Positions 8,657 to 61,910 of a stretch of DNA of 64,000 nucleotides are shown here, piece after piece. The notes under the pieces were generated by a model that was not told the DNA's origin, did not search any database, and saw only the letters and a program-made list of their open reading frames with translations. Origin of the DNA: Desulfurellaceae bacterium (GTDB lineage Bacteria; Desulfobacterota; Binatia; Bin18); the NCBI GenBank assembly GCA_021296095.1, contig JAGWBB010000002.1, positions 21,463 to 85,462 on the forward strand. Direction: 5' to 3'. The position numbers and the translations under genes were made by a program. Within the stretch, counting starts at the first letter, position 1, and every line of letters starts with the position of its first letter.

Positions 8657-11600
8657 ACTTCAGGTCCTTTCTGGCGTGCAAACCAGCGCGTGTAACAGTC
8701 CCGGATGGCCTCGCGTTGGACGTGATAGTCGGCCAGCAGCCGGGACGCCGCGTCGTCGCCGCCATAGCCCATCCGTCTGGCCAACCGGGGCAGTTGCGCG
8801 CCCTCGCTCTCCAGCGCTTCAACCGGCTGGTCACAGTCGATGCGGAGACGGTTTTCCAAGGTCCGCAGAAAACGGTAGCCCTGACTTAAGAGCTGACAAT
8901 CGTCGGCCGGCAGAACTCCGCAGGTCTGGAGAGCCTCAAGAGCCTGGAGTGTGGCGCGCTGTCTCAGCGCCGGAAGACGCCGACCATACCGCAGCTGCAA
9001 CATTTGTACAAGGAACTCGATATCGACAATGCCGCCCCGACCGGTCTTGATATTGAAGCGGTCGCTGGCCTCGCCGGCCAGCTCATTTTCCATGCGTCCG
9101 CGCAGCCGGTCGATTTCGGCCACATCATCCACGGTGATGGCGTCGGCATACACGATTGACTCCAGCAAGGCCTGTATCGGATCGGCCAGAGACACATTCC
9201 CGACCACCACCCGGGCCTTGATCAGGGCCTGGCGCTCCCACACCTGAGAGCTGGCCTGATGGTAGCGTTCAAAAGCCGACAGGGACGAGACCAGCGAGCC
9301 GGACCGGCCCGAGGGCCGCAGCCGCGTGTCGATTTTATACACATAGCCCTCGCGGGTCTGGACTTGCAGGGTCGAGATAATGCGCTGGGCCAGCTTGGTG
9401 AAGAGTTCGTGCGGCCCGACCTTGGGGTGGGCAGCGCCCCGGTCGAGCTGTGCGGCCGGCTGGTACAGAAAAATCAGATCAAGGTCCGAGTTGTAGTTGA
9501 GTTCCCGGGCGCCCAGCTTGCCCATGCCGACAATGGCGAAGCGGCCCGGCAGGGCGCTGAGCCCGAGCTGCTCAAACAGGGCCGCCCGCGCCGTCTCATA
9601 GGCGCCGCCCAGACAGGTCTGGGCCAGGTCGGACAGCTGTATGCTGACCTGGGTGCAGTCCAGCAGCCCGTTGCTGTCGTTGATCCCAATCCGCAAAAAC
9701 TCTTCGGTCCGGTAGCGGCGCAGGATATCGAGCCGATCCTCCAGGTCGTTCACCTCGGCCAAACGGGCCGACAGCTCGGCCTGCATCATGGCCTGGGATT
9801 TATGGATGTGGACCAGATCGGCCCGCACCAGACTGTCGAGCAGCTCGGGGTGGCGCAAAAAGGTCCGCGACAGATAGGCGCTCGTGCCAAACAGCCCGAC
9901 CAGGGTGCGCAGGGTGGACGGATTCTCGCGCAGCAAGGCCAGAAAGCTGGAGCGCGCCCCAATCGAGGCGACCAGGTTGGCTATGCCGGACAGCGCAAAG
10001 TCCGGATCCGGGGTCTGGGTCACCTCGCGGAACAGACTCGGGGCGAGTTCGTACAGAATCTTGCGCCGCCGGGGTGAGGCCGGCGAGTGCGGCGGTCCGG
10101 CGTGGAGCAGCACCGCGTGCTGATAGCTGTGCTCGATATCGCGAAAGCCGAACTGCCGCAGCAACTCGGCGGCCCGTTCCCGGTCGTCCAGCGCCTCAAA
10201 AAAAGTCTGGACGGCCTCGGCGTGGGGGTCGTCGGCCTGCTGCTGTTCCTGGGGCGCATAGAAGAGCGAGCAGAAAACCTGATGGACCGCCTCGGTATGG
10301 GAGTGGAACAGCGACCGGAACAGCGCCACCTCGTCGTCCGGGAGAGGAGAGTTTTGCCCTTTGAGTTTTGCCCTTTGAGTTTTGCCTTCTCTCCAGTCTT
10401 CTACCCGCAGCCGGCGGGCCAGCACCCGAATCTCCGCCTCGGTGTCCGGCAGGCTGTGGGTTTGACGGTCGTGAACGATCTGGATTTTGTGTTCGACCTG
10501 ACGCAGAAAGCGGTAGGCATGGCGCAGGCGGTCACGATCCTTCGCCGACAGGTAATGGCCCTCGGCCAGGCGGTCGAGCGCCGGTAGGGTCTTCAGCTCC
10601 CGCACGTGGGGATCTTTGCCGGCGTGAATGAGCTGAAGCACCTGGCTGACAAACTCGACCTCCCGGATGCCGCCGCGCCCGAGCTTGACGTTGGAGCTGG
10701 CGGGTTCGGTTTTGTTCAGGCTGCGCTCAATCCGAGCTTTCATGTCCTTGAGGTCTTCAACCGTCGTAAAATCGAGATAGCGCCGAAACACAAACGGCTG
10801 AATCTCGGTAATGAAACGCTCCCCCAAGGCCAGGTCTCCGGCAATCGGCCGGGCCTTAAGCAGGGCCGCCCGCTCCCAGGTCTGGCCCCAGGCTTCGTAA
10901 TAACCCAGGGTATTGGACAGGGAATTGACCACCGGGCCATTCGAGCCGTCCGGCCGCAGGCGCAGGTCAACCCGAAACACCCGTCCACCAGCCACCTGAT
11001 CGCTCAGCGCTCGGGTCAATTTCTGGGCCAAATGGGTGAAGAACTCGCGCGGTGCCAGGCTGCCCTTGCTGCCCCCGGTGGTGTGCCCGGCATCGCTCTC
11101 GTACATATAGATCAGATCGATGTCAGAACTGAAATTCAAATCCTGACCACCGAGCTTCCCCATGCCAAAGACGACGAATCCGAGCGGCCGGCCGTCGGAC
11201 GAGACAGCCTGACCGTAGAGCTCACACAGCCGCGCCCGGCTGTACTCGTAGGCGACCTCGACCGCAGCGTCAGCCAGACAGCTCAGCTCCCGGGTCGTCT
11301 CTTCCAGCCTGGCCAGGGACAGCAGGTCGCGGGTACCGATGCGCAGGTACGCGCGGTCACGGTAGACCCGCAGCGCGTGCCAAAACTCCTCCTCAGGCAG
11401 CTCGTGCGGCAGCCGGGCGCGGAGCGTGGACAGATGCTGGGCAAGGCTGCTACCCGACGCCTGACAATCGGCCAAAAAGGCCGCTTCCCACGCCTCAGCC
11501 TGACGCAGCAAGACCGTGGTGAGATGTTGGCTGGCGCCGAGCACAAAGAGCAGGTCGGCACACCGCCGGGCGTCTCCCAGCACCCTGCCCCGGCCGCTTC

Positions 11601-22298: not shown

Positions 22299-24017
22299 TC
22301 AAAACAGAAAGTAGCGCTGGGCCAGCGCCAGCACGTTGGCCGGCTCGCAGGTCAGCAGCTGCCCGTCGGCCCGGACCTCATACGTCTCGGGATTGACCTC
22401 GATGTGCGGCAGCGCCCCATTGTGGATCAGGTCTGTTTTGCCCACCTGCCGGCAGTTGTGAACCGGCGCCAGCCGCTTTTGCAATCCGAGCTGCCCGGCC
22501 AGACCGTTGTCATGCGCCGCGCGGGAGACGAAACTGAGCGACAGGCTGGCCGGGGCACGACCAAAATGGCCGAACATCGGCCGACCGAAGACCGGCTGGG
22601 GGGTCGGAATCGAGGCGTTGGGGTCGCCCATCGCCGCCCAGGCAATAAAGCCGCCCTTCAGAATGAGTTCGGGCTTGACGCCGAAAAACTTGGGCTCCCA
22701 CAACACCAGATCAGCCAGCTTGCCGACCTCGATTGAGCCGACGTGGTCGGCAATGCCGTGGGTCAGGGCCGGGTTGATGGTGTACTTGGCCAGGTAGCGC
22801 TTGACCCGAAAATTGTCGTTGTCGCCGCTCTCCTCGGCCAGGCGTCCGCGCTGGACGCGCATTTTATGGGCCGTCTGCCAGGTGCGGAGAATCACCTCCC
22901 CGACCCGGCCCATGGCCTGGGAGTCGGAGGCCATCATGCTGAAGGCACCGAGATCGTGCAGCACGTCCTCGGCCGCAATGGTTTCCGGCCGGATGCGCGA
23001 CTCGGCAAAAGCCACGTCTTCGGGGACGCCGGGGTCGAGGTGGTGGCAGACCATCAGCATGTCGAGGTGTTCGTCAATCGTGTTGACAGTGAACGGCCGG
23101 GTCGGGTTGGTCGAAGACGGCAAGACGTTGGGAAAACCGCATACCTTGATGATGTCCGGGGCGTGGCCACCGCCCGCTCCCTCGGTATGATAGGTATGGA
23201 TCGTGCGGCCCTTGAAGGCCGCAAGCGTGTCCTCGACAAAGCCGGTCTCGTTCAGGGTATCGGTGTGAATGGCAACCTGGACATCATAGGCGTCAGCCAC
23301 CGACAGGGCGCAGTCAATCGCCGCCGGAGTCGAGCCCCAGTCCTCGTGCAGCTTGAGCCCCATCGCTCCGGCCTCAATCTGCTCGCGCAGCGCCTCGGGA
23401 CGCGAGGCGTTGCCCTTACCCAAAAACCCCAGGTTCATGGGAAAGGCTTCGATTGATTCGAGCATCCGGGCGATATTCCACGGTCCGGGGGTGCAGGTGG
23501 TGGCGTTGGTGCCGGTCGCCGGACCGGTCCCGCCGCCGAACATGGTGGTAATGCCGGAGGCCAGGGCTTCGGTGATCTGCTGCGGACAGATAAAGTGAAT
23601 ATGGGCGTCGATCCCGCCCGCAGTCAGGATCTTGCCCTCGCCGGCCAAAATCTCGGTGCCCGGCCCGATGACCAGTTCGGCCGATACGCCGTCCATCAGC
23701 AGCGGGTTGCCGGCCTTGCCGATGCCGCAGATACGGCCGTCTTTGATCCCCACGTCGGCTTTGACAATGCCCCAGTGATCGAGCACCGTGGCGTTGGTAA
23801 TGACCAGGTCGGGCGCGCCCTGAGCCGAGGTCTGGACCGGCGACTGGGCCATGCCGTCCCGAATCACCTTGCCGCCGCCAAACTTGACCTCGTCGCCGTA
23901 GACCGTGTGGTCGTGCTCGATCTCGACCACCAGCTCCGTGTCGGCCAGCCGTAGCCGGTCGCCGACGGTCGGCCCGAACATCTCGGCATACTGCCGGCGC
24001 TCAATCGTGTGACTCAT
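22299..24017 (-). CDS. ureC: Urease alpha subunit
   Basis: 572-aa protein with the canonical UreC N-terminus ([19 protein letters not shown]) and metal-site His residues. Confidence 0.95.
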
Positions 24018-38630: not shown

Positions 38631-39027
38631 GTCATTCCCGCCAAACAGGGCTCGCACCACCGTGCTCTCAACGGCCCGGTCAATGATTTTTTCGGAGGTG
38701 TCAGGCAGAGCCTGGTTGTCCGGCGTGGGCTGCCCACCATGGTCGTGGGCATGCTCAAGCGAGGTATTGGGATCGAAAGGATCTTGTAAGCTGTTATGGG
38801 CCATACACATGCCCTCCAAGCAAGAGGATTCGTTCCGCTAAGAAAGAGAACGTGGGAGAGAAGAACAGCAATTCACGTGCCAAGACACCGCGCAGAGCGC
38901 GGAAAGCCAAAAGACACGGAAAAACAAGGCGTTTACCGCAGGGGAAACGAACACAGATCAAACGAGCCGGGCACAGGGGTGTTTGTGGAGCAACAGAAGA
39001 GCACAAAACTGTTCATTCAATAGGCAG

Positions 39028-39058
39028 TGTTTGCAATAAACAGTGTTTGCAATAAACA
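39028..39058. promoter_or_regulatory. Two tandem copies of the 15-bp palindrome TGTTTGCAATAAACA upstream of the cyn transporter operon; candidate operator
   Basis: Perfect inverted repeat TGTTT-N5-AAACA, duplicated head to tail, in the divergent region between the SBP gene and the porin gene. Confidence 0.5.
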
Positions 39059-39103
39059 GCGTGTGACTGCTCAAGACGAACCGCCACAACGCCTCGCTTG
39101 CAT

Positions 39104-49562: not shown

Positions 49563-50777
49563 ATGATCGACTTCAGCCCGCCCGCCCATGTCCAGACCGC
49601 AGTCGGCGATATCAGGCGCTTTATCGCCGACGACATCAGGCCCATGGAGCGCGAGCTGGCCGACTACCTGACCAACGAACACCTGTACCTGCAAGCCGAC
49701 GGCCGTCTCGCCCCGCCGATCCTGGCCGCCCAACGCACCATCCGCAAAATGTCTGCCAAGCGTGGCCTGTACGCCCTGCACATGCCGACCGAGGTCGGCG
49801 GCGGCGGTTTCAGCCTGACCGATATGTTCTTTGTTCACGAGGCCGTCTACCAGCACGGCATTGGGCTCAGCCAGTGGATGCTGTCGTGGACCGAGGGACC
49901 CAACCAGATGCAGATGTGGCTGAGCGAGGAGCAACAACAGCGCTACCTGTTGCCGCTGGTCCGGGGCGAGCAGACCGCCGCCTACGCCATCACCGAGTAT
50001 CGGGGCGGCTCGGACGTACTGGGCATGCAGACCCGGGCCGAGCGGCGCGGCGACGGGTGGAGCATCAATGGCACCAAAGCCTATATCACCAACGCCCAGT
50101 ACGCGGACCAGATCTTTGTCTGCGCGCTCACCGCACCCGACAAGGGTAGTGCGGGCGCGACCGCCTTTATCGTTGAGAACGACGCTCCGGGCCTCGGCAT
50201 CGGTCGCACGTATCGGACGATCATGGACGACGGCATGACCGGCGAGCTGATCTTCGACGACTGCCGGGTGCCGCTGGACAACACCTGGGGACGCGAGGGT
50301 CAGGGCTTCTACCTCAGCATGGGCATGATCAACTGGATTCGCGTCCGCCGGGGCGGCATGTGCAGCGGCCTGGGTCAGTATCTGCTCGACCGCTGCATCG
50401 ACTACACCAAAAACCGCCAGGCGTTTGGCGGCCGGCTGAGCCGTTTCCAGGCCCTGCAGTGGATGATGGTCGATTCCTATCTCGACGTGCAGGCGATGCG
50501 CAGCATGGCCTTGCAGAGCCTGTGGAAGGCCGACCAGGGCGATCTGTGGGCGCTCAAGGTTGACCCACAGCTGATCCAGACCGTGTGTGGCCTGAAAGTC
50601 TTCTGTGACGAGGCTCTGTACCGGGTCGCCGACCGGGCGGTGCAGCTGCACGGCGCCTACGGGCTCAGCAAGGACTCGGGGATTGAAAAAATCTTTCGGA
50701 TTGCCCGCAACCTGCGCATTCCGGGCGGCACGGACGAGATCCAGCGGGTGAATATTGCCAAGGCCCTGGGTCTGTGA
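49563..50777 (+). CDS. Acyl-CoA dehydrogenase family protein
   Basis: ACAD fold motifs. The 3' end (RIARNLRIPGGTDEIQRVNIAKALGL) is duplicated at 56578-56656. Confidence 0.8.
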   Translation: MIDFSPPAHVQTAVGDIRRFIADDIRPMERELADYLTNEHLYLQADGRLAPPILAAQRTIRKMSAKRGLYALHMPTEVGGGGFSLTDMFFVHEAVYQHGIGLSQWMLSWTEGPNQMQMWLSEEQQQRYLLPLVRGEQTAAYAITEYRGGSDVLGMQTRAERRGDGWSINGTKAYITNAQYADQIFVCALTAPDKGSAGATAFIVENDAPGLGIGRTYRTIMDDGMTGELIFDDCRVPLDNTWGREGQGFYLSMGMINWIRVRRGGMCSGLGQYLLDRCIDYTKNRQAFGGRLSRFQALQWMMVDSYLDVQAMRSMALQSLWKADQGDLWALKVDPQLIQTVCGLKVFCDEALYRVADRAVQLHGAYGLSKDSGIEKIFRIARNLRIPGGTDEIQRVNIAKALGL

Positions 50778-50796
50778 GGGCGTGTATTCAAATGGT

Positions 50797-51084
50797 TCAC
50801 GCCGGACGAACCACTTCGAGTTTCAAGCCTGTCGCCCGAACGACCGGAGCCAGGGTTGACCAGCGCGGCTTACCCTTGGCCGACAGCACGCGATACAGAC
50901 TCTCCCGGGGAATCCCCGCCCGTTTGGCGACCGCCGCCATGCCCTGCGCCTCGGCGACTTTCCGCAGCGCTTGCAGGAAGACCGCCGGCTCTTCGTCCTC
51001 TGCCGCTGCCGTCAGATAGTCGGCGCTGAAACCGGGATCTTTGAGCTGTTCACGCAGCCACTCGTTGTGCTTCACCTTTTTCAT
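50797..51084 (-). CDS. higA: Orphan HigA-type addiction-module antidote protein (HTH); near-identical copy of 56676-56963
   Basis: MKKVKHNEWLREQLKDPGFSA... No cognate toxin upstream; the Tn3-like IR-L begins 39 nt from its start. Confidence 0.7.
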   Translation of the reverse strand: MKKVKHNEWLREQLKDPGFSADYLTAAAEDEEPAVFLQALRKVAEAQGMAAVAKRAGIPRESLYRVLSAKGKPRWSTLAPVVRATGLKLEVVRPA

Positions 51085-51530
51085 GATCCTGTCGCTCACA
51101 GCTGCCCAACAATGCGGCAAGGTGGACCAGCGGGGGCATTTGCACAGAAACCTACGGTTTGGCGAATGTTGACCAACAGCATCACAGGATTTTCAGCCAT
51201 TGCCTCGTGCTCTCGATAAGGAATCCGCCCCCATAGGTGAGGGTTGGCCCATGTTTCAGATCGATGCGGCCCACACCGCCGCGAAAGACCGGAGTCCACA
51301 GCGCGAGATTCGTCGTCTCGCCACCGTCGTTCACGGATGGAACAAGGGATTCTGCACCTGGAATCCCTTGAACGAGTGGGCGATGCTCATCGCGCCGAGC
51401 GCAAACACCAGTACGACGGTGACGCTGACGACTCCCACAGACTTCCGTAGTCGGGGGTTTTTGCCCGCCCCCTCGAAAAGGTATAGTAGCGCGCGTCATC
51501 CGGCGAGAATCCGTCGCACGGGGCCATGGG

Positions 51531-52124
51531 CTAAGCACCACGCGTACTCTTTCCTGAGCGAGTCGTCTGATTCGCCACCAGCGTAACCGCCGTTTTTAGA
51601 GACGAGATTAGTCCGTTCAGGTCACGTCGGCTCTTCGCGCTATATTTGAATGCCATAGCTGCTGTCACAAAGAAATGGGCGAATTGGTTGAGACTTTGCC
51701 CTGACGCTTCTATCTGCTTTGTGTACGGCGACAGCAGGCGCGTAATCAGTTTCGTGTGGCGAGCATGGGATTCCGCGAGAGCGTCTCTCCCAGCTTCGTT
51801 GTGCCCGCTGATCAGATCCTCAGCGTCACCTGATGTTTGTAAGAGCTCAAAGGATTTGATGATGGTTTCCGCAAAATAGACGTCGAGTTGCGCCTCCAGG
51901 GATTCGCACGCGCCAAGGCGTGCTTCGACCTGAGACAGGTTGTGATCGGTGATGTGACGTACCGACGCAACGATCAACTGATCCTTGCTTCCAAAGACAT
52001 CGTACAGCGTCTGCCGTGAGACTTTGGCTTCTTGAGCGATGTCAGCCATCGCCGTTTTTCGGGCTCCGTATCTCACGAAGGTGCGGATGGCGGCTTCAAC
52101 AATCTTTGTTTCTATGTCAGACAT
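51531..52124 (-). CDS. TetR-family transcriptional regulator (transposon cargo)
   Basis: N-terminal HTH (AAIRTFVRYGARKTAMADIAQEAKVSRQTLYDVFGSKD). Confidence 0.85.
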   Translation of the reverse strand: MSDIETKIVEAAIRTFVRYGARKTAMADIAQEAKVSRQTLYDVFGSKDQLIVASVRHITDHNLSQVEARLGACESLEAQLDVYFAETIIKSFELLQTSGDAEDLISGHNEAGRDALAESHARHTKLITRLLSPYTKQIEASGQSLNQFAHFFVTAAMAFKYSAKSRRDLNGLISSLKTAVTLVANQTTRSGKSTRGA

Positions 52125-52390
52125 ATGCGCCCTGTACGTGGCTCCTCGTGTTTTAGGGAGCTAATTGTAGCAAAAATGGACTACTTGACAATACTCATAT
52201 TTATGTAAAACTACAACTTTACAGATGTCGTTAGTTTGTACACCCAGAACGCATTGGAGGATGGTGAGCGAGCCCAGATTCTAAGCCTGAATGCAGCTCA
52301 TGTTTTTAAGTTTGCAATTCCTGCGCGCTGTCTGAAGCACGCAGGTGCAGCAGCCGTTGCCTCGGCAGTGGCGTATCGAGAGGAGAGCAC

Positions 52391-53209
52391 ATGGAGAACA
52401 ACAGGAGTCAGAAGGTCATTTTGATTACGGGCGCCTCTTCCGGCATCGGTAAGGAGTCAGCCAAACAGCTCGTCTCAAAAGGGTATCGCGTATACGCGGC
52501 AGCCCGGCGACTTGAGCAGATGCAAGATCTTGAAGCACTCGGATGCGCGACGATCAGGATGGACATCTCGAAAGAAGAAGAGGTGGAAGAAGTCGTCGGC
52601 AACATCTTGGACGAAGCAGGGACAGTTGATGTGCTCGTCAATAACGCAGGGTATGCAACCCAAGGGCCAGTCGAAGAAATGCCTTTGGAGGATGCCCGGG
52701 CAATCTTCGATGTCAACCTGTTCGGACTTGGGTACCTCACGAAGCTGGTCCTACCCGGCATGCGGGAACAGGGCGCAGGGAGGATCGTTAATATTGGCTC
52801 TGCAGGCGGGAAGGTCTATCTGCCTTTGAGTGCCTGGTATATCGCGTCCAAGCATGCATTGGAAGGCTGGAACGATTGCTTGCGCACGGAGTTAAAGCAA
52901 TTTGGGATTGACGTCGTGTTGATTGAACCCGGCGCCATTGCTACGGAGTTCAACGGTGTGGCCATGAGCTCCATATTAGAAAGATCGGGCGATGGCCCGT
53001 ACGGCAAGTTGGCCCATGCGTATGTCAATCTGGACGTACCAGAATCACATCCGTCCGTCATCGCGGATGTGATTGTGAAGGCGGTTGAGACAAAAAAGAC
53101 GAAATACCGCTACGTCGCTGGAAAGATGGCTAGGACAACGATCGGAATGCGGAAGTGGTTGGGGGACAAAGCGTACGACCGGCTTCTCGACACCATTTAC
53201 AAAGTGTAG
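52391..53209 (+). CDS. SDR-family short-chain oxidoreductase (transposon cargo)
   Basis: TGASSGIG cofactor motif, NNAG, and the Y-x3-K catalytic motif (YIASK). Confidence 0.85.
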   Translation: MENNRSQKVILITGASSGIGKESAKQLVSKGYRVYAAARRLEQMQDLEALGCATIRMDISKEEEVEEVVGNILDEAGTVDVLVNNAGYATQGPVEEMPLEDARAIFDVNLFGLGYLTKLVLPGMREQGAGRIVNIGSAGGKVYLPLSAWYIASKHALEGWNDCLRTELKQFGIDVVLIEPGAIATEFNGVAMSSILERSGDGPYGKLAHAYVNLDVPESHPSVIADVIVKAVETKKTKYRYVAGKMARTTIGMRKWLGDKAYDRLLDTIYKV

Positions 53210-53360
53210 ACATCCCTAGCTCTACGCTGAGGTCTCTCAACAAGGAATCAATCAATGAGCAATCGTACCGTTGGTTTCGTTGGTCTCGGCGCGATGGGTG
53301 AACCCATGGTCGCCCGGGAACAACGGTGCTCCTCATGCGCACGATAATCTCTTTTTGTGA

Positions 53361-53861
53361 GTGATGAACATGACACTATTGCATGCAAAATGGTTTCTGT
53401 CGCTATTGCTGCTGACTGTGGGGGGCTGTCATTCTGTGTATACAGAACTGACGATCCCAGCCGGTCCCGAAGAAATTTGGCCCATCTTAACAGATGCCCC
53501 GGGATATCAAGAGTGGAACCCGGTCTTTGTTCACGTCGAAGGTGAATACCGGGAAGGGGGAACGCTCCAATATCAGATGAAATCCCCTGACAGTGAACAA
53601 ATGGCTGTGCAGGCGACCGTGAAAAAATTGGTTCCCAACAAAGAGTTGAACCAATATGGCGGCTTTCCTGGAGTTTTGACCTTTAGCCACACCTATCTTC
53701 TGGAACCTGTCGATGGAGGGACTCGCGTCATTCAAAAGGAGGAATACCGCGGCATATGGGTGCCGTTTTGGGATTCGAGTTGGGTGGAGCCAGCCTATAA
53801 TAAAGTGAATGAAGCCCTCCAGGACAGGGTGGCGCAGTTGAAGGAGAATGGACGACCATAA
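53361..53861 (+). CDS. SRPBCC (Bet v1-like / polyketide-cyclase-like) protein with an N-terminal lipoprotein-type signal (transposon cargo)
   Basis: LLLTVGGC lipobox-like N-terminus and SRPBCC-like length and pattern. Confidence 0.6.
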   Translation: MMNMTLLHAKWFLSLLLLTVGGCHSVYTELTIPAGPEEIWPILTDAPGYQEWNPVFVHVEGEYREGGTLQYQMKSPDSEQMAVQATVKKLVPNKELNQYGGFPGVLTFSHTYLLEPVDGGTRVIQKEEYRGIWVPFWDSSWVEPAYNKVNEALQDRVAQLKENGRP

Positions 53862-53897
53862 CTACCGTGCCTCGGCAATCTGCATCACCTCCATCGT

Positions 53898-54455
53898 CTA
53901 CGGGGAGGCACTCGGTGCGCTGAGATAGCGATAGACACTGGCTTTGGAGAGTTGGTAGTCCGCCATTAAGATTTTAATGAGTGTTCCTTTCTTGCGTCGG
54001 CGTCGCAGTTCCGTGGTCTTTTGGGGAGTCAACTGCTTTTGCCGGCCGAAGTGCACGCCGCGCGCTTTGGCTTGCTGTATCCCATCCATCTGGCGCTCGG
54101 CCCGAATCTCCGTCTCAAACTGCGCAATGGCTCCCAACATATTGAACAGCAAGCGGCCGGTCGCATCACTGGTGTCGATATGCTGATCGAGGACCTGAAG
54201 ATGGACCTGTTTGCGAGCGAGCTCGTCGGCAATCTGACACAGATGCAGGGTCGAGCGCGCCAAGCGGTCTAAGCGCGTGACGACGAGTGTATCGCCTTCT
54301 CTTACGTACTCCAAGCAGGCGTGTAGCCGGGGCCGCTTGTGGGTCGCACCGCTCTTTTTCTCTTGAAAGAGTTTATCGCAGTGTTTGAGCTTCTCACGCT
54401 GAACGGCCAGACTTTGGCCTACTGAACTGACGCGCGCATACCCGACCAAGGCCAT
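53898..54455 (-). CDS. tnpR: Serine recombinase (Tn3-type resolvase TnpR)
   Basis: MALVGYARVSSVGQSLAVQ... catalytic Ser motif and C-terminal HTH. Confidence 0.85.
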   Translation of the reverse strand: MALVGYARVSSVGQSLAVQREKLKHCDKLFQEKKSGATHKRPRLHACLEYVREGDTLVVTRLDRLARSTLHLCQIADELARKQVHLQVLDQHIDTSDATGRLLFNMLGAIAQFETEIRAERQMDGIQQAKARGVHFGRQKQLTPQKTTELRRRRKKGTLIKILMADYQLSKASVYRYLSAPSASP

Positions 54456-54595
54456 CGCTTGACTCCTCGTGTTTCAGTATGTCTCAGGCTATGTGCGAAG
54501 GCCACAATGAGACATGAATTGAGACACGTCAAGAGCAGTGTCTTGGAAGGTCTACCTTTGGAGACGCTGCGCTCCCCTACAGAAAGGTCCTCTCT

Positions 54596-55330
54596 ATGCC
54601 CATGCCCGAACAGTTTTTACCCAACCGCAAGCGCACGCAGCCCATCTCCCTGCCTCACGACTTTTCCGACGAAGAGATGGACCGCGACTGGTTTTTATCC
54701 GCAAAGGATAAAACCGAGATCAACAAGTATTGGCGCAGCTTCCGATTGGGGATCGCCGTCCAGCTCTGCGCGGTCCGCTTATATGGGCGCTTCTTGACCG
54801 GTCTCCAAGACCTTTCGCCACGCATTCTTAACCACCCCGCCAGCCAGCTCGCGCTGCCTCCGACCCTCACGATTGAAGAACCCGAGCGAGAAGCGACGGC
54901 ATTGGAGCAGCGCAAGAATATCCTCCGCTATCTGGGCTTTCAGCGCTTCGATAACACCCGTCAAGCGCAGCTCCAGAGCTGGTTGGAAGAGCAGGCCAAA
55001 CAGTACCGTCATAAGCTGCCCCGCCGGGTGTTCTTTGCCGATCAAGGCGAATTCACCACCGGCGATTATGAGGCGCTCATGAACAAAGCCAGCTGCTTGA
55101 GTCTGGTGTCGAACGCCATCCTGTATTGGAATACGCTCAAGATTACGGACATTGTGGACCAGCTCAGACAGCAGGGGGAAGCAATTGAGGACGAGACCTT
55201 AGCGCATGTCTCGTTGTTGCCATTTAAGCATGTCCTGCCCAATGGCACCTATTTTTTTAACGACGACTATCCGAGGGCATTTGGCCAGAAAGGTACGGTT
55301 CTGACTCCAGGACGCCGCCCGAAACCGTAG
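54596..55330 (+). pseudogene. tnpA: Internally deleted Tn3-family transposase: DUF4158-like N-terminus fused to the extreme C-terminus, 244 aa against a full length of about 1000
   Basis: N-terminal RLGIAVQLCAVRLYGRFL and C-terminal SNAILYWNT ... LLPFKHV..NG.Y.F resemble the Tn3 TnpA termini. The stop lies inside IR-R. Confidence 0.65.
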
Positions 55331-55438
55331 GTTTCTGTTCAAATGCCCCCGCTGGTCCAAGGTCTCAAACAGCATCTTCCCTGCACTTGCACCTAGGTTT
55401 GATATCTTTTGTAAATTTCCTGGTCTGAGAGAGCTGTT

Positions 55439-55699
55439 TCATTGCTCCCAGCTCTCGAACATGTCTTCCAGCGTGTCGAAGGTTTCCACATCCTCCCCCG
55501 TGCGGCTTTTCTCAAGTGTCTGTTTTGTCAAGGCATTCGGAATCAGGATGGGAAACGGCAGGCCCCCATGCAGACAGATCTGGCGGTAAAAGAGCCGAAT
55601 TGCCTCAGTGGGGGTAAGACCGAGTTTTCGGAGTACACTTTCGGCCTGCTTCTTGGTCTGCGGCTCCACACGCGCATGGACGACGGCTGATTTATTCAT
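55439..55699 (-). CDS. RelB/DinJ-family antitoxin (orphan; no toxin gene downstream before the transposon IR-R)
   Basis: MNKSAVVHARVEPQTKKQAESVLRKLGLTPTEAIRLFYRQ. Confidence 0.7.
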   Translation of the reverse strand: MNKSAVVHARVEPQTKKQAESVLRKLGLTPTEAIRLFYRQICLHGGLPFPILIPNALTKQTLEKSRTGEDVETFDTLEDMFESWEQ

Positions 55700-55992
55700 G
55701 CGGTCCAGCGTGTCACACATGCAACACACCATCAAGCTTGTCCCATCGTCATTGACCCACCCCCGCCACCTTGACAATCCCTCTGCTTGCTCCAGGTTGT
55801 TCTGCTATAAGCGTCCAGGTTTCCACAGGATATACTCCTACAGAAAACGGAGATACCGTCGGCATCTCGTGTGTGACCGAGTTATGTCGCTCCAACAGTC
55901 ATCAGCGCGCACAGTACGGATACGAGATAGTGCGTTTAGCATCAATATCGTGACCGTTGTTCAGAGAGTACCATAGTGGTACCATCGGCGGG

Positions 55993-56196
55993 ATGCCGCC
56001 GAAAATTCGAGAGCTGATCAAAGACTTGGAAGCGGCTGGATTCGTCAACAGAGGCGGAAGAGGAAGCCACAGAAATTTCAAGCATCCACAAGGCGTTCGT
56101 ATCACCATCAGCGGCAGACTGGGGAGCGATGCCCAGGCGTACCAAGAGCGCGAGGTGAAGAGAGCCATAGACAGAGTCCGTCATGAAAAAGAGTGA
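55993..56196 (+). CDS. hicA: HicA toxin
   Basis: MPPKIRELIKDLEAAGFVNRGGRGSHRNFKHPQG. Confidence 0.8.
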   Translation: MPPKIRELIKDLEAAGFVNRGGRGSHRNFKHPQGVRITISGRLGSDAQAYQEREVKRAIDRVRHEKE

Positions 56197-56521
56197 TCGC
56201 TACCTGAAAATCGTCGAATGGTCCGACGAGGACCAGTGCTATATCGGAAGAGCCCCCGGCGTCATGCTGGGTGGGGTACACGGCCGGAATGAGGCCGAGG
56301 TGTACGCCGAACTGTGTACGGCCGTAGAAGAGTGGATACACATCCAGGAGACCGATGGCGACCCGCTCCCGCCCGAGACCGCAAACAAGACGTATTCGGG
56401 CAAATTCAACCTGCGGGTAGGCAAAGTCCTGCACCAACGGCTGGCCGTCGCTGCCCGCAAAGCCGACCAGAGCCTGAATGCATTTTGTGTCAAAGCCCTC
56501 GAAAAGGCGCTTGGCGGCTAG
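56183..56521 (+). CDS. hicB: HicB antitoxin
   Basis: HicB N-terminal RNase-H-like fold region (YIGRAPGV...GVHGRNEAEVYAEL) and a C-terminal DNA-binding tail. Confidence 0.75.
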   Translation: MKKSDRYLKIVEWSDEDQCYIGRAPGVMLGGVHGRNEAEVYAELCTAVEEWIHIQETDGDPLPPETANKTYSGKFNLRVGKVLHQRLAVAARKADQSLNAFCVKALEKALGG

Positions 56522-56577
56522 CAGCCTATTGATGAGAGTATACTCTTCAGAAGCTCTTTCTCGTTGCCTTATGGTCA

Positions 56578-56656
56578 GATTGCCCGCAACCTACGCATTC
56601 CGGGCGGCACGGACGAAATCCAGCGGGTGAATATTGCCAAGGCCCTGGGGTTGTGA
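56578..56656 (+). pseudogene. Duplicated 3'-terminal fragment of the acyl-CoA dehydrogenase gene (26 codons plus stop)
   Basis: About 95% identical to 50699-50777. The homology continues through the adjacent higA copy. Confidence 0.7.
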
Positions 56657-56675
56657 GGGCGGTCAGTCAGGTCGC

Positions 56676-56963
56676 TCACGTCACGCGAACCACTTCGATC
56701 TTCAAGCCCGTTGCCCGAACGACCGGAGCCAGGGTTGACCAGCGCGGGTTGCCCTTGGCCGACAGCACGCGATACAGACTTTCCCGGGGAATCCCCGCCC
56801 GTTTGGCAACCGTCGCCATGCCCTGCGCCTCGGCGACTTTTCGCAGCGCTTGCAGGAAGACCGCCGGCTCTTCGTCCTCTGCCGCCGCCGTCAAATACTC
56901 GGCGCTGAAACCGGGATCTTTGAGCTGTTCACGCAGCCACTCGTTGTGCTTCACCTTTTTCAT
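56676..56963 (-). CDS. higA: HigA-type addiction-module antidote protein
   Basis: Paralogue of 50797-51084. Lies downstream of higB. Confidence 0.75.
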   Translation of the reverse strand: MKKVKHNEWLREQLKDPGFSAEYLTAAAEDEEPAVFLQALRKVAEAQGMATVAKRAGIPRESLYRVLSAKGNPRWSTLAPVVRATGLKIEVVRVT

Positions 56964-56995
56964 GATCCCGTCGCTCACTTCCAGCTCACAGTACG

Positions 56996-57316
56996 TCACA
57001 GTCTTGACCGCCAGTCCTTCAATCGCGCCTTCGCCGCTGCAATGTCAGACTGTTGCGTCCCCTTGGTGCCACCACACAGCAGCAAAATGACGTGCTTCTG
57101 GGTCGTGGCAAAGTAGACGCGGTACCCAGGGCCATAATTAATCCGCAGTTCCATGACTCCACCCTTCACTGATCGACAGTCACCCAGCAAACCGAATTCG
57201 AGGCGTTCAACCCGCGCCGCGATCCGCGCTACTGCCCTCTGGTCTCGCAAGCTGCTCAGCCAGGCATCAATCAAATCTCGCCCGTCAGCATCGGTGTAGT
57301 GGAGAACTTCAGCCAT
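56996..57316 (-). CDS. higB: HigB/RelE-type addiction-module killer protein
   Basis: 106-aa RelE-fold protein (MELRINYGPGYRVYF...VILLLCGGTKGTQ). Confidence 0.75.
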   Translation of the reverse strand: MAEVLHYTDADGRDLIDAWLSSLRDQRAVARIAARVERLEFGLLGDCRSVKGGVMELRINYGPGYRVYFATTQKHVILLLCGGTKGTQQSDIAAAKARLKDWRSRL

Positions 57317-57377
57317 AGAAGTCTTGGAAACTGTAACTTATTCGTTACATATGTCAAGGCATTGTTATGGCTAGGTC

Positions 57378-57560
57378 CAGGAAGTCGATGGCGACCCGCT
57401 CCCGCCCGAGACCGTAAACAAGGCGTATTCGGGCAAATTCAACCTGCGGGTAGGCGAAGCCCTGCACCAACGGCTGGCCGTCGCTGCCCGCAAAGCCGAT
57501 CAGAGCCTGAACGCATTTTGTGTCAAAGCCCTCGAAAAGGCGCTTGGCGGCTAGCAGCCT
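57378..57560 (+). pseudogene. Duplicated 3' half of hicB (about 90% identical to 56350-56530)
   Basis: Clear nucleotide homology, including the stop and the trailing CTAGCAGCCT. Confidence 0.65.
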
Positions 57561-57604: not shown

Positions 57605-58924
57605 ATGAAGACCTCCCCCGCGGCGACCAGGGAACTGGCCGCTCCCCCTCCCCCGGCTCCCGCACCGCGCATCTTTTACGGCTGGATCGTACTCGGCCTG
57701 GCCTTTACCGTCCTGTTTTTCGCCTACGGCATTCAGTTCACGTTCGGGGTGTTCATGCCGGCCATTGAGGCCGATACGGGCTGGGATCGGGCCAGCCTGT
57801 CCCTGCCCTATGCCCTGTATGTGTTCCTGTACAGCGCCCTGGGAGCCGCCAGCGGCTGGGCGACTGATCGCTGGGGGCCGCGGGTGGTGATCCTGAGCGG
57901 GGGATGTCTGCTGGGCGGTGGTATTCTGCTGACCAGCCAAGTGCAGGAGCTGTGGCAGCTGTATGTCAGCCTCGGGCTCATTGCCGCCATGGGCATGAGC
58001 GCAGCCTTTGTGCCGTGCAACTCCACGGTCGTACGCTGGTTCATACGGCGCCGGGGCCTGGCTCTGAGTATTTCAACCAGCGGCGGCAGCATGGGCAATT
58101 TCCTTTTTCCGCCGCTTGCCGCCGCCCTGATCGGCGCCTATGGCTGGCGTTCGGCGTATCTGATTCTGGGCAGTGTCGGCCTGACCGTCATCGGCCTGTG
58201 CGCGGTGTTCATCGTGCGCGATCCACAACAGCTGAACCTCCAGCCGGACGGCGCTGCCCCGGCGCCGGCACAGGAAGAGCCGCACCCCCATACCGTTTCC
58301 GGAGCGGGCTACACGCTCGCCGAGGCGCGCGGGACGCTTTCTTTCTGGCTACTGAACCTCGTGTTTACCCTGACCTGGCTGGTCGTGTTCATGCCGTTTA
58401 TTCACCTCGTTCCGTTTGCCATCGACCTGGGCGTGCCCCAGGTTGGGGCGGCCACGGTGATGAGTGTGATGGGTCTCGGCAGTCTGAGCGGCCGGCTGCT
58501 GAGCGGCGCCATCTCCGACCGCCTGGGACGCCTGCCGACCCTGGGCATCAGCCTGGCCCTGCAAATGCTGGCCTTTATCGGCTTTATGCTGAGCAGCGAT
58601 CTGCGCCTGCTGTACCCCAGCGCGCTGATCTTCGGCGTGGCCTACGGCGGGGCGGCCACCCTGTTTCCGGCCATTGTGGGAGATTTTTTTGGTCTGATAT
58701 CGGTCGGCGCGATTGTCGGTTTCATCTTTGCCGTTGCCGGCTCGACCGCCGCCTTCGGTCCCTATATCGCCGGCTACATCTATGACGCCAGCGGTTCGTA
58801 TACCACGGCTTTTCTGCTCGGAGCGGGGCTCAATCTGCTCGGTCTGGGGGTGCTCTTTTTTGTCAGAAAGCCGCCGGCCAAGGGGATCGCGCCAGCCCCT
58901 GCGGCAGCTGTTCACAGCAGGTGA
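57605..58924 (+). CDS. MFS transporter (OFA-like)
   Basis: 12-TM MFS pattern. The ORF is open upstream to 57299, but the hydrophobic start is at MKTSP. Confidence 0.8.
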   Translation: MKTSPAATRELAAPPPPAPAPRIFYGWIVLGLAFTVLFFAYGIQFTFGVFMPAIEADTGWDRASLSLPYALYVFLYSALGAASGWATDRWGPRVVILSGGCLLGGGILLTSQVQELWQLYVSLGLIAAMGMSAAFVPCNSTVVRWFIRRRGLALSISTSGGSMGNFLFPPLAAALIGAYGWRSAYLILGSVGLTVIGLCAVFIVRDPQQLNLQPDGAAPAPAQEEPHPHTVSGAGYTLAEARGTLSFWLLNLVFTLTWLVVFMPFIHLVPFAIDLGVPQVGAATVMSVMGLGSLSGRLLSGAISDRLGRLPTLGISLALQMLAFIGFMLSSDLRLLYPSALIFGVAYGGAATLFPAIVGDFFGLISVGAIVGFIFAVAGSTAAFGPYIAGYIYDASGSYTTAFLLGAGLNLLGLGVLFFVRKPPAKGIAPAPAAAVHSR

Positions 58925-58972
58925 GCCTTGCGTCGCTCTTGTTGTTTGCCGTCACTCAGGATATGGCACACC

Positions 58973-59038
58973 CCAAGTCCAGGCCAAGTCCAGGCCAAGT
59001 CCAGGCCAAGTCCAGGCCAAGTCCAGGCCAAGTCCAGG
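58973..59038. repeat. Six perfect tandem copies of the 11-mer CCAAGTCCAGG immediately upstream of the ribosome-binding site of the hydrolase gene
   Basis: Read directly in the sequence. The repeat is followed by CG AGGAGG AAGCC ATG. Confidence 0.9.
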
Positions 59039-59051
59039 CGAGGAGGAAGCC

Positions 59052-59855
59052 ATGCTACGTGCACGGGTGAACAGCGTCGAGTTAGTCTACGAGCTGAACG
59101 GCTCGGGCGAGCCCCTGGTCTTGATTCACGGGGCACAGAGTGACCGGAGTATTTTTGCCGGACTGCTGCCCAGCTTCACTGATCGGTTTCAGGTCTTGAG
59201 CTTTGATCAGCGCGGCTCGGGTCAGAGCGACAAGCCCGACATGGACTACACCATCGGCCTACTGGCCGATGACACCGCAGCCCTCATGGAGCAGGTCGGG
59301 TTCGATTCAGCCCATATCATCGGCGTGTCCATGGGCGGCATGATCGCCCAGGAGTTTGCGCTCCGCCACCCGGCCAAGGCGCGCAGTCTGGTCCTCGGCT
59401 GCACCACCCCCGGCGGTCCCCAGGCTGTCCCGCTGTCCGGCGAGGGCATCGCCAGCGCTTATTCCACCAAAGAGATGTCGGCCGAAGAGCGCGGCCGAGC
59501 CCTGGCCGAGGCAGCCTTCACCACGGGCTATATCGAGGCCCACCCGGAGGTCATCACGGCCATGATTGAGGCCCGCCGCAACCGGCCGATTGATACGGTC
59601 GGCTTTGGTCATCGGATGAAAGCCGCCTTCAGCCACGATACCTACGACCGCCTGCCCAACATCGCCTGCCCGACCCTGGTGCTGACCGGCAAACAGGACG
59701 CCCTGATCGCCTGGGAAAATTCCACCTTGCTGGCCGAACGGATTCCCGGCGCCGAGTGTGTGGTGCTGGAGCCGGCCGGGCATGTGTTCTGGATTGAACA
59801 GCCCGAGCAGTCGCGTCGGGCCATCCTGGATTTTTTGCACCACCACACCGCATGA
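59052..59855 (+). CDS. Alpha/beta-fold hydrolase
   Basis: HG oxyanion motif (LIHGAQSD) and GVSMGG nucleophile elbow. AGGAGG ribosome-binding site 5 nt upstream. Confidence 0.8.
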   Translation: MLRARVNSVELVYELNGSGEPLVLIHGAQSDRSIFAGLLPSFTDRFQVLSFDQRGSGQSDKPDMDYTIGLLADDTAALMEQVGFDSAHIIGVSMGGMIAQEFALRHPAKARSLVLGCTTPGGPQAVPLSGEGIASAYSTKEMSAEERGRALAEAAFTTGYIEAHPEVITAMIEARRNRPIDTVGFGHRMKAAFSHDTYDRLPNIACPTLVLTGKQDALIAWENSTLLAERIPGAECVVLEPAGHVFWIEQPEQSRRAILDFLHHHTA

Positions 59856-59865
59856 AGGACGCCAT

Positions 59866-60903
59866 ATGTCACAGCGACAGCTGACGAAAGACAGCCAGGC
59901 CCGCACCCTGCGCGGCTGGATGCTGGGTTTGCACGCCACCCATATCATCGACGTTGGCGGGCGGCTGGGCTATTTTTCGGCCCTCCGCCAGCGGGACGGC
60001 AGGGCAACCGCAGCCGAGTTGGCGACCGCCCACGACCTCGACCCGTGGCGTACTGCGGTGTGGTGTAAAGCCGCCTGCACGGTCGGTATTCTGCGGGCGA
60101 CCGACGAAACGGCTGACACCGCCTACAGTTTTGCGCCGTTCATGGACGAACTGCTGGCCGACAACGCGCCCGACCTGCTGACCTCGCACGTGCTGGCCAG
60201 CCTATCCCGCGACTATCCGGGCTATCCCGAGGCGTTTCGGACCGGGGCGACCAAGACCTTTCACGACCACGACGAGGACTTCTTCGCCCACCAGGGGCGG
60301 ATTTCGGCGCTGCGTGCCCCGCTTATACTGGCCGCCGCCCGGCAACTGCCCGGCGTCGAAGAGCGTCTGAGTGCGGGCGGCACGATCATGGATATCGGCT
60401 CGGGCAGCGGGACGGTCCTGGTCAGCTTTGCCGAAGCCTTTCCCGGCTGTCAGGTAATCGGCATCGAGCCCCTGCCGTATTTTGTCCACAGCTCACGCCA
60501 GCGCCTGGCAGAGCGGGGTCTGGCCCAGCGGGTCCGGGTTGAATCGGTCGGCGGCGAGGGGATGGACTTCGCGCAGACTGCCGATCTGATCACCATGGTC
60601 CAGGTCTTCCACGAGCTGCCGGATACGGAAAAAATCGCCATTCTGCACCGCTGCCATCACGCCCTCAAACCCGGCGGCAGCCTGCTGCTGGTCGACCGCT
60701 GCGCGCCGGAGAGCGCCCAGGACATTCAGGACCGGCGCTTCAGCATGAGCATCCTGGAGCAGTGGTTCGAGGTCACCTGGGGCAATATCGTCAACACCCG
60801 GAGCGAAATCCTGGCCATGCTGGGCCAGACAGGCTTCAGCGTCAGCCAGGAAAACCCCGACATGGTGCCGACCTATTGGTCGTTTGTGGCAAACAAGGGC
60901 TGA
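59866..60903 (+). CDS. SAM-dependent O-methyltransferase (class I; plant/bacterial OMT-like with an N-terminal dimerisation domain)
   Basis: MDIGSGSGT motif and OMT-like architecture. Confidence 0.75.
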   Translation: MSQRQLTKDSQARTLRGWMLGLHATHIIDVGGRLGYFSALRQRDGRATAAELATAHDLDPWRTAVWCKAACTVGILRATDETADTAYSFAPFMDELLADNAPDLLTSHVLASLSRDYPGYPEAFRTGATKTFHDHDEDFFAHQGRISALRAPLILAAARQLPGVEERLSAGGTIMDIGSGSGTVLVSFAEAFPGCQVIGIEPLPYFVHSSRQRLAERGLAQRVRVESVGGEGMDFAQTADLITMVQVFHELPDTEKIAILHRCHHALKPGGSLLLVDRCAPESAQDIQDRRFSMSILEQWFEVTWGNIVNTRSEILAMLGQTGFSVSQENPDMVPTYWSFVANKG

Positions 60904-60926: not shown

Positions 60927-61910
60927 ATGTCTCGACTTGGCATGGTGGTGTATCACGGGATTGAGAGTGGCGCCGAGCTGGCCGAGTACGGTCGGATTGC
61001 CGAAGGGGCGGGGTTTGACTCGCTGTGGGTCACCGAGCGCTATTTTCACGAGGAAACCTTTTCACTGTTAGGCTATCTGGCGGCCGTGACCCGAACGCTC
61101 ACGCTCGGCGTTGGGGTGGTCAATCCGTATACCCGCAACCCGGCCCTGCTGGCCATGGCCGCAGCGACTCTGGACCGGCTCAGCGGCGGGCGGCTGGTGC
61201 TGGGACTGGGCCGCAGCGAGCCGGCGGTCATTCAGGACAAAATGGGCATTCGCTACGGCAAGGCCGGCGCGGCCATGGAGGGCGCGGTCAGCCTGCTGGG
61301 CCGCCTGCTGTCGGGCCAGCGGGTGAGCGCCACGGCCGGTCCGTTCAGCCTGACCAACGCCAAGCTGTCGCCCGAGCCGATTCGGAAGACGCCGATTTAT
61401 CTGGCCGCCATCGGCCGCAAGGGCCTGGGGCTGACCGGCGCGATTGCCGACGGGGTGGTTCTCAACGCCTATGTGCCGACCAGCTATGTAGGCTATGCGG
61501 TCGAAGAAATCCGTAGCGCCGCGCGTGCCGCAGGCCGCGACCCGGCCGCGATTGACATCAGCTGCATGCTCGTCGTCCGCCTCACCGACGAACCGCAGCG
61601 GCTGTACCCGGGGCTGAAGAGGCGGCTGGCGCGTCTGTTGGACGAGGATTTTGTGGGAGAAATCCTGCTCGAAAAAGGCGGTTTTGACCCTGGCGTTCTG
61701 GTACCTCTGCGGGCGGCCTACCGCAGCCGGGATGAGGAAACTGCGGCCAAACTGGTAAGCGACGAGATGGTGAGAGCGTTCTATGTGATCGGGCCGGCCG
61801 AGACCTGCAAGGAGCGCATCAACGCCTACCGGGCGGCCGGGGTTGACGCGCCCCTGCTGTTGCCACGTCTGGAGGATTATCGCAAGGTGGCCGAGGCCCT
61901 GCGGGACTAA
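60927..61910 (+). CDS. LLM-class (luciferase-like) F420-dependent oxidoreductase
   Basis: LLM fold motifs (FDSLWVTERYF ... RLVLGLG). Confidence 0.75.
   Translation: MSRLGMVVYHGIESGAELAEYGRIAEGAGFDSLWVTERYFHEETFSLLGYLAAVTRTLTLGVGVVNPYTRNPALLAMAAATLDRLSGGRLVLGLGRSEPAVIQDKMGIRYGKAGAAMEGAVSLLGRLLSGQRVSATAGPFSLTNAKLSPEPIRKTPIYLAAIGRKGLGLTGAIADGVVLNAYVPTSYVGYAVEEIRSAARAAGRDPAAIDISCMLVVRLTDEPQRLYPGLKRRLARLLDEDFVGEILLEKGGFDPGVLVPLRAAYRSRDEETAAKLVSDEMVRAFYVIGPAETCKERINAYRAAGVDAPLLLPRLEDYRKVAEALRD

Follow-up and report, generated by a model that had tools for sequence, protein, structure and literature searches.

Copy-number variation of an 11-nt tandem repeat next to the ribosome-binding site of a hydrolase gene in uncultured Binatia

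Does a perfect tandem repeat placed between a transporter gene and the ribosome-binding site of the following gene control the expression of that gene, or is it an ordinary product of slippage? The question is raised by a Binatia contig, of which a stretch of 64,000 nucleotides (hereafter the window) was analysed. In it a short 11-mer is repeated head to tail directly in front of an alpha/beta hydrolase gene, which is followed by genes for an O-methyltransferase (OMT) and a luciferase-like oxidoreductase (LLM). The features of the locus are as follows.

57605 to 58924, plus strand: gene for an MFS transporter of 439 aa, 5' of the spacer (Pfam MFS_1, E 7e-48; orthologues 436-439 aa)
58938 to 58971, plus strand: conserved 34-nt non-coding block CTTGTTGTTTGCCGTCACTCAGGATATGGCACAC directly 5' of the array, a candidate promoter or operator (comparison with the sister clade)
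58973 to 59038, plus strand: tandem array, 6x CCAAGTCCAGG, the variable part of the locus (sequence, Tandem Repeats Finder, orthologous arrays with 1-6 units)
59040 to 59046, plus strand: Shine-Dalgarno (SD) sequence GAGGAGG, 5 nt 5' of the ATG and the same in every orthologue of the 94-99% clade (sequence, alignment)
59052 to 59855, plus strand: gene for an alpha/beta hydrolase of 267 aa, the first gene 3' of the array (Pfam Abhydrolase_1, E 7.5e-32)
59863 to 60903, plus strand: O-methyltransferase gene, 7 nt past the hydrolase stop codon (Pfam Methyltransf_2; synteny conserved)
60927 to 61910, plus strand: luciferase-like (F420-type) oxidoreductase gene, the last of the co-directional set (Pfam Bac_luciferase, E 3e-68)

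The array and its immediate context

Direct reading of the sequence gives six perfect units with 0 mismatches. Tandem Repeats Finder reports the array at 58973-59039 with a period of 11, 6.1 copies and 100% matches, and its score of 134 is the highest in the 64-kb window, the runner-up scoring 76. The observed array is thus confirmed as real. It occupies 66 nt (52%) of the 127-nt spacer between the stop codon of the MFS gene (TGA, 58922-58924) and the start codon of the hydrolase gene (ATG, 59052-59054). The motif AGGAGG is located at 59041-59046, 2 bases 3' of the array, and the ATG lies 13 bases 3' of it. An earlier sequence-only reading of this DNA had described six perfect copies in a 127-nt spacer, filling most of it and ending 2 nt before AGGAGG; the sequence and Tandem Repeats Finder both agree with the copies and all of its coordinates are correct. 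The exact 11-mer does not occur within the 64-kb window outside the array. When one mismatch at most was allowed, the window had 11 matches where 1.45 would be expected, a count never reached in 100 shuffles. The window has two further perfect short tandem duplications, at 39025-39059 and 10349-10386. One is a 16-mer repeated 2.2 times, the unit of which holds the palindrome TGTTTGCAATAAACA and is operator-like in look; the other is a 14-mer repeated 2.7 times (GAGTTTTGCCCTTT).

Most of the hydrolase homologues recovered by protein search are 264-267 aa long, which supports ATG 59052 as the start codon. None of the NCBIfam models reached its cut-off on the five genes of the locus, the matches of the LLM protein to F420-dependent families being below their cut-offs, and the pathway is therefore left without a name. 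An exact look-up of the window's hydrolase and of P0122 returned no identical record. A terminator scan of the window, L043 and L047 gave no terminator-like site between the MFS and hydrolase genes.

Copy number among orthologous loci

When one genome per species was searched for two units in a row, five loci were obtained, and three of the five belong to Candidatus Binatia MAGs. In these three GTDB Binatia species genomes the array lies between the same MFS and hydrolase genes and has 3, 5 and 6 units. Further loci were collected by a hydrolase protein search, by listing the members of the clusters and by fetching the encoding contigs. In total 19 orthologous MFS-hydrolase-OMT-LLM loci were obtained from Candidatus Binatia MAGs and marine metagenome assemblies. 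The metagenome records carry the names TARA, NGUY21, LUOR22, ROBB19 and PANK22, which are probably those of coral and sponge studies, and the uncultured lineage with the array is probably marine and host-associated. No match was found when viral contigs were scanned for two units. A search of metagenomes for the 17 nt that flank the array on its 5' side (CTCAGGATATGGCACAC) gave 36 loci, all of them chance matches in unrelated sequence, and a literature search for Binatota together with tandem repeats found no papers.

The 11-mer also stands in tandem in two unrelated genomes. An alphaproteobacterial MAG (L002, 1615-1672) has three perfect and two degenerate units in the opposite orientation, 43 nt 5' of an unrelated gene's ATG, and an actinomycete MAG (L005, 5182-5225) has two perfect and two variant units. 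Since their flanks are unrelated and the collection is large, these are taken as independent or chance occurrences.

Every contig that is long enough keeps the same gene order: MFS, hydrolase, OMT and LLM, then a second hydrolase gene that converges on them. Within a clade of loci that are 94-99% identical (the ingroup), 1, 2, 3, 5 or 6 units are found at the same site between conserved flanks, although some of these copy numbers rest on short-read assemblies, which are liable to mis-resolve repeats. Counting of units in related strains had been proposed in the sequence-only reading as a check, and the count comes out in favour of variation. A sister clade, with a hydrolase gene 87-88% identical, is without the repeat and has an intact operon. 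The individual loci are given below, where the leader is the distance between the 3' end of the conserved 34-nt block (…GGATATGGCACAC) and the ATG.

Window: 6 perfect units; leader 80 nt
L004: 6 units, 5 perfect and 1 variant; leader 79 nt
L003: 5 units, 3 perfect and 2 variant; leader 68 nt
L050, L051, L052, L053: 3 perfect units; leader 46-47 nt
L001: 3 units, 2 perfect and 1 variant; leader 46 nt
L049: 3 units, 1 perfect and 2 variant; leader 43 nt
L054: 3 variant units; leader 46 nt, read left of a scaffold gap
L042, L056: 2 units; leader 35 nt
L047, L048: 1 unit (CCAAGTCCAGA); leader 24 nt
L043, L044, L045, L057 (sister clade): 0 units, 18 unrelated-looking bases CTCAGTCTCAACCCCAG[G/T] instead; leader 31 nt
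Not scorable: L055, which starts inside the array, and L046 (sister clade), the contig of which begins 13 nt before the ATG

The leader lengths of the ingroup (24, 35, 46, 68 and 79 nt, and 47 and 80 nt in the window's clade) are exact multiples of 11 nt apart, with the exception of L049. Position 58972 is an extra C particular to the window's clade, and it is also carried by L050 and L051. These two are the closest relatives, with a hydrolase gene 98.8-99.0% identical to that of the window, and they have three units against six. In a neighbour-joining tree of the hydrolase gene adjacent lineages likewise differ: the window with 6 and L050/L051 with 3, L003 with 5 and L054 with 3, L047/L048 with 1 and L001 with 3, L004 with 6 and L049 with 3. 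Pairs of loci that differ at 5-15 of the 804 hydrolase sites have the same copy number in only 3 of 21 cases, and both pairs with 0-3 differences at the 804 sites have identical arrays. Independent samples of one lineage are concordant (L050 and L051, L052 and L053, L047 and L048, L042 and L056). The sequence GAGGAGGAAGCC-ATG on the 3' side of the array is invariant across the ingroup loci. The units at the edges of the arrays are degenerate (ccaaatccaga, ccagatccagg) and the inner ones perfect, and TCCAG is invariant in all of the variant units.

On the 5' side the array adjoins the 34-nt block, which is the only conserved candidate for a promoter. Between ingroup and sister clade the block shows 2-4 differences per 34 nt, and divergence at third codon positions in the neighbouring gene is 27-28% (binomial P 0.0014-0.024). 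The block is thus more conserved than synonymous sites, which argues that it is under selection. In the sister clade ~190 extra bases are present between the MFS stop codon and the block, which still adjoins the hydrolase gene, and this suggests that the block is part of the control region of the hydrolase gene itself. Within the block is the sequence TTGTYG-N17-TATGGC, which is only weakly sigma-70-like, and a sigma-70 consensus scan of the window, L043 and L047 called no promoter in the spacer, block included. A sigma-54 reading of TGGCAC in the block was considered by eye and rejected, as TTGC is missing at the distance that such a promoter needs and TGGCAC is replaced by TTGCAC in the sister clade. 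In L043 (5745-5965) the ~190 extra bases include a perfect hairpin, GAGACGCCCC-ACC-GGGGCGTCTC, and GGGGCGTCTCTAC for a second time; in L044 and L045 this extra spacer sequence is shorter.

The region directly 5' of the MFS gene in L043, L044, L047, L049, L052, L054 and the window (55439-57316) is a toxin-antitoxin hotspot, in which the modules differ by lineage (HicB, RelB, YafQ/ParE, Gp49 with an HI1420-type partner) and the operon downstream is constant. Further upstream the window has a remnant of a Tn3-family element at 51123-55359, bounded by 38-nt inverted repeats (51123-51160 and 55322-55359) that are 97% complementary. Its cargo consists of a TetR-like ORF, an SDR, a 166-aa ORF, a resolvase-like ORF and a truncated transposase (DUF4158 and the end of the DDE domain), and its GC content is 52-55% against ~63% around it. 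The remnant is absent from L044 and L047, where an acyl-CoA dehydrogenase gene lies at most ~1.5 kb from the MFS gene. Direct duplications flank the inserted region, one of 300 nt (50696-50995 and 56575-56874, 91%) and one of 185 nt (56343-56527 and 57376-57560, 95%). The 300-nt duplication doubles a 107-aa ORF (50797-51120 and 56676-56999, both on the minus strand), the position of which matches that of an L047 gene with a Pfam match to dnstrm_HI1420 in a scan of the L047 gene only. Elsewhere, the only Rfam match of the whole window is 5_ureB_sRNA at 23567-23864 on the plus strand (95 bits, full length). This match most probably indicates no more than a ureB gene and, with it, a urease cluster.

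What the array could be doing

The units are short, near-identical and arranged head to tail, and the alleles differ by whole units between conserved flanks, as in a variable-number tandem repeat (VNTR). Our data make it fairly probable that the array is such a repeat, that it arose from native leader sequence, is driven by slippage and is transcribed, and that its effect is neutral or weakly graded and not one of on/off switching. The starting point would be an 11-nt stretch native to the leader of the hydrolase-OMT-LLM operon, present as the single copy CCAAGTCCAGA directly before CGAGGAGG-N5-ATG. This stretch would have been duplicated and would then have gained and lost whole units, the simplest route being slipped-strand mispairing in replication. 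Degenerate edges with perfect inner units are what is expected of slippage-driven homogenisation. The perfect units, six in the window and five in L004, are open to two readings, recent slippage and selection for long alleles.

Since the array is neither coding, nor a spacer between -35 and -10 hexamers, nor an upstream activator tract, it is presumably transcribed as 5' UTR or intercistronic spacer. Transcription would come from the 34-nt block or by read-through out of the MFS gene. The only direct effect of a change in units would be growth of the 5' leader or intercistronic spacer in steps of 11 nt, from 24 to 80 nt between block and ATG, and the spacing of promoter hexamers, the reading frame and the ribosome-binding site would be untouched. 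The likeliest consequence may be none at all or a weak graded shift in translation or mRNA stability. Lineages with one or no unit retain the operon and its flanks, and the context of the ribosome-binding site is constant, which makes a neutral or weakly graded effect most likely.

The sequence-only reading had suggested that slippage in the array could switch expression of the three genes. Such a switch is geometrically implausible, as the array is outside the ORF and a length of 11-66 nt is unfit for the space between -35 and -10. On/off contingency loci have their repeat in the ORF or at or between promoter hexamers; the array has neither position, and a spacer of 16-18 nt is impossible with 11-66 nt. 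There is also no room for a promoter downstream of the array, because only 13 nt separate it from the ATG and these hold the conserved Shine-Dalgarno sequence. The array thus leaves hexamer spacing and reading frame unchanged, and an on/off switch is unlikely. A related argument, that a unit of one helical turn would re-space and not re-phase a promoter element relative to the ribosome-binding site, is weak as well. It relates an element of DNA to a site that acts in RNA, and 11 bp correspond to ~1.05 turns, so that five extra units add ~85 degrees.

At the RNA level the array has no strong structure. Folding of the full leader was no better than that of shuffled controls (z = -0.95), and the array alone formed weak GGCC/GGCC pairings only (z = -1.76 as RNA and -2.24 as DNA). 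The nearest match to a reverse-complement partner of the repeat, with at most one mismatch, lies more than 50 kb away, and Rfam gave no match on the locus at permissive thresholds. When 0-10 units were modelled, the predicted unpaired probability of the region from SD to AUG was 0.33-0.52, with a small oscillation in predicted SD accessibility between odd and even numbers of units (0.51 vs 0.35). This modelled oscillation might produce some graded effect. The natural alleles of 1, 2, 3, 5 and 6 units show no preference of parity.

Other explanations have to be weighed against the VNTR. Copy-number differences could be errors of repeat resolution during assembly or sequencing. The scaffold of L054 does have an N gap, on either side of which the edge of the array is repeated, and the contig of L055 starts inside the array; the start of L046 13 nt before the ATG is irrelevant here, as L046 belongs to the repeat-free sister clade. 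However, varied lengths are found across methods, in megabase contigs (L001, L003), in a k141 MEGAHIT-style contig (L053) and in SPAdes-style scaffolds, and arrays in assemblies of such different kinds make an artefact very unlikely. Moreover, each array has clean flanks and lineage-specific variant units, the latter not producible by collapse, the four pairs of independent samples of the same lineage agree, and a typical read exceeds even the 66 nt of the longest array. It should be noted here that the gap of L054 and the contig end of L055 both fall exactly at the array, which is a weak hint of heterogeneity within samples. A coding role, as an N-terminal extension of the hydrolase or as a small upstream ORF from ATG 58963 in the block, is so improbable that it can be set aside. 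The hydrolase frame of the window is open through the array back to TTG 58713 and ATG 58963 opens a frame of ~60 codons across it. Yet alleles of 1, 2 and 5 units shift the frame, their lengths not being divisible by 3, and the array is therefore non-coding. ATG 58963 is ATT in the sister clade, the open upstream frame overlaps the MFS gene, and the strong SD and ATG 59052 are invariant, the usual length of homologues being that from this ATG. The upstream ORF and the extension were accordingly rejected on the frame-shifting alleles and the non-conserved ATG. As an observation, the ATG in the block of the window opens an out-of-frame ORF (58963-59145) through the array into the hydrolase gene, and in the single-unit loci L047 and L048 the same ATG would be in frame with the hydrolase and would give an 11-aa extension.

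The two remaining alternatives assign a function to the array. It could bind a protein, with the 11-bp units as half-sites for an OmpR/PhoB-type winged-helix or iteron-like binder and with cooperative occupancy rising with the number of units, to the effect of a roadblock or an operator. OmpR/PhoB-family regulators usually have direct repeats at 10-11 bp as their sites. Read directly from the sequence, the 11-bp period puts the units on nearly the same face of the DNA, and TCCAG is kept in every variant unit, though common descent may suffice for that. Iterons and operators have a conserved multiplicity and a cognate protein at or near the locus, and neither was found. L047 and L048 with one unit and L043-L045 and L057 with none keep the operon and flanks. 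The conserved neighbours of the array are the MFS, hydrolase, OMT, LLM and second hydrolase genes; no regulator gene is conserved beside it, the upstream neighbours being variable toxin-antitoxin genes. The unit is found nowhere else in the window, and the alphaproteobacterial and actinomycete arrays stand in unrelated contexts that fit chance recurrence. A binding array is therefore a distinctly improbable explanation, and the suggestion of an iteron-like site in the sequence-only reading is weakened by the one- and zero-unit lineages and the lack of a conserved regulator gene nearby. Alternatively, the array could be an adaptive rheostat, in which the number of units determines how long or how structured the 5' UTR is and thereby tunes translation of the operon or stability of its mRNA, the alleles being kept by selection from the host or environment. 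We consider this somewhat unlikely. Copy number turns over at a sequence divergence of 1% or less, the array has the SD on one side and a block conserved by selection on the other, long perfect alleles occur in the two separate lineages of the window and L004, and predicted SD accessibility has its small parity-dependent shift. There is also a precedent in the hmw genes, where 5' UTR repeats are transcribed and expression is inverse to repeat number (PMC12721329). Against this, the array has neither a complementary partner nor significant structure, unlike the long hmw hairpin, its alleles have no preferred parity, and the sister clade is repeat-free and yet has an intact operon. The genes encode, by family, ordinary enzymes of cytoplasmic type, whereas contingency loci typically involve surface or host-interaction genes. 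A selected tunable leader, with copy number setting the output of the transporter-linked operon through leader length or phased binding of a putative regulator, is unlikely. The analysis found no sign of regulation by the array, and the VNTR explanation describes it as an ordinary slippage-prone repeat in an operon leader.

Comparison with known repeats and significance

Burkholderia pseudomallei has a G+C content of ~68%. Intergenic tandem repeats are preponderant in its genome, are used as VNTRs for MLVA typing and have measured mutation rates above 1e-5 per locus per generation (PMC1853098). The earlier statement that simple repeats are unusual in high-GC genomes is thus overstated in view of a genome so rich in intergenic tandem repeats (PMC1853098). 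The array shares with these VNTRs, which have 4-10 copies, its short perfect head-to-tail units, mostly intergenic position in their case, high-GC setting, constant flanks and copy number that varies between relatives. It differs in its unit of 11 bp, those of B. pseudomallei being mostly of 6-9 bp. Turnover has been measured in B. pseudomallei, whereas in the uncultured Binatia it is deduced from comparison of lineages.

The hmw1A and hmw2A genes of Haemophilus influenzae carry (ATCTTTC)n in their 5' UTR, which is transcribed and varies in number among strains (PMC12721329, PMC2424069). That repeat forms a long hairpin with a G-rich partner and is cleaved by RNase III, and its natural alleles have at least 11 units (PMC12721329, PMC2424069). 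Both repeats lie 5' of the start codon in a leader, which in Binatia would likewise be transcribed, and both vary in number between strains. By analogy, the hmw repeat may be the best precedent for control by an intergenic repeat that is graded and not on/off. In contrast to it, the array has 1-6 units and lacks a partner and significant structure, and no hairpin of the hmw kind was found.

In Neisseria, Haemophilus and Mycoplasma phase variation depends on tracts such as the TA repeats between -35 and -10 of hifA/B and the TAAA repeats upstream of nadA. The array resembles these tracts in being an intergenic, slippage-prone repeat close to the start of a gene. However, the tracts lie within or upstream of the promoter and alter hexamer spacing or the geometry of an activator, whereas the array, directly next to the SD, is 3' of the one candidate promoter that is conserved, and the mechanisms of promoter tracts are inapplicable to it. 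The MIRU elements of Mycobacterium tuberculosis have units of 40-100 bp at many dispersed loci and often carry small ORFs that couple translation. Like them, the array is a variable repeat in a high-GC genome and stands between co-directional genes that look like one operon; unlike them it has an 11-nt unit, a single locus and no coding role.

The locus is a clean natural series for the effect of leader length on expression. Neither possible outcome touches a long-standing open question. If expression does not scale with copy number, the array is an ordinary neutral variable repeat; if it does, repeat-based tuning would extend from pathogens to an environmental or symbiotic phylum. The five alleles of 1, 2, 3, 5 and 6 units are a marker that is usable for typing uncultured Binatia strains in metagenomes.
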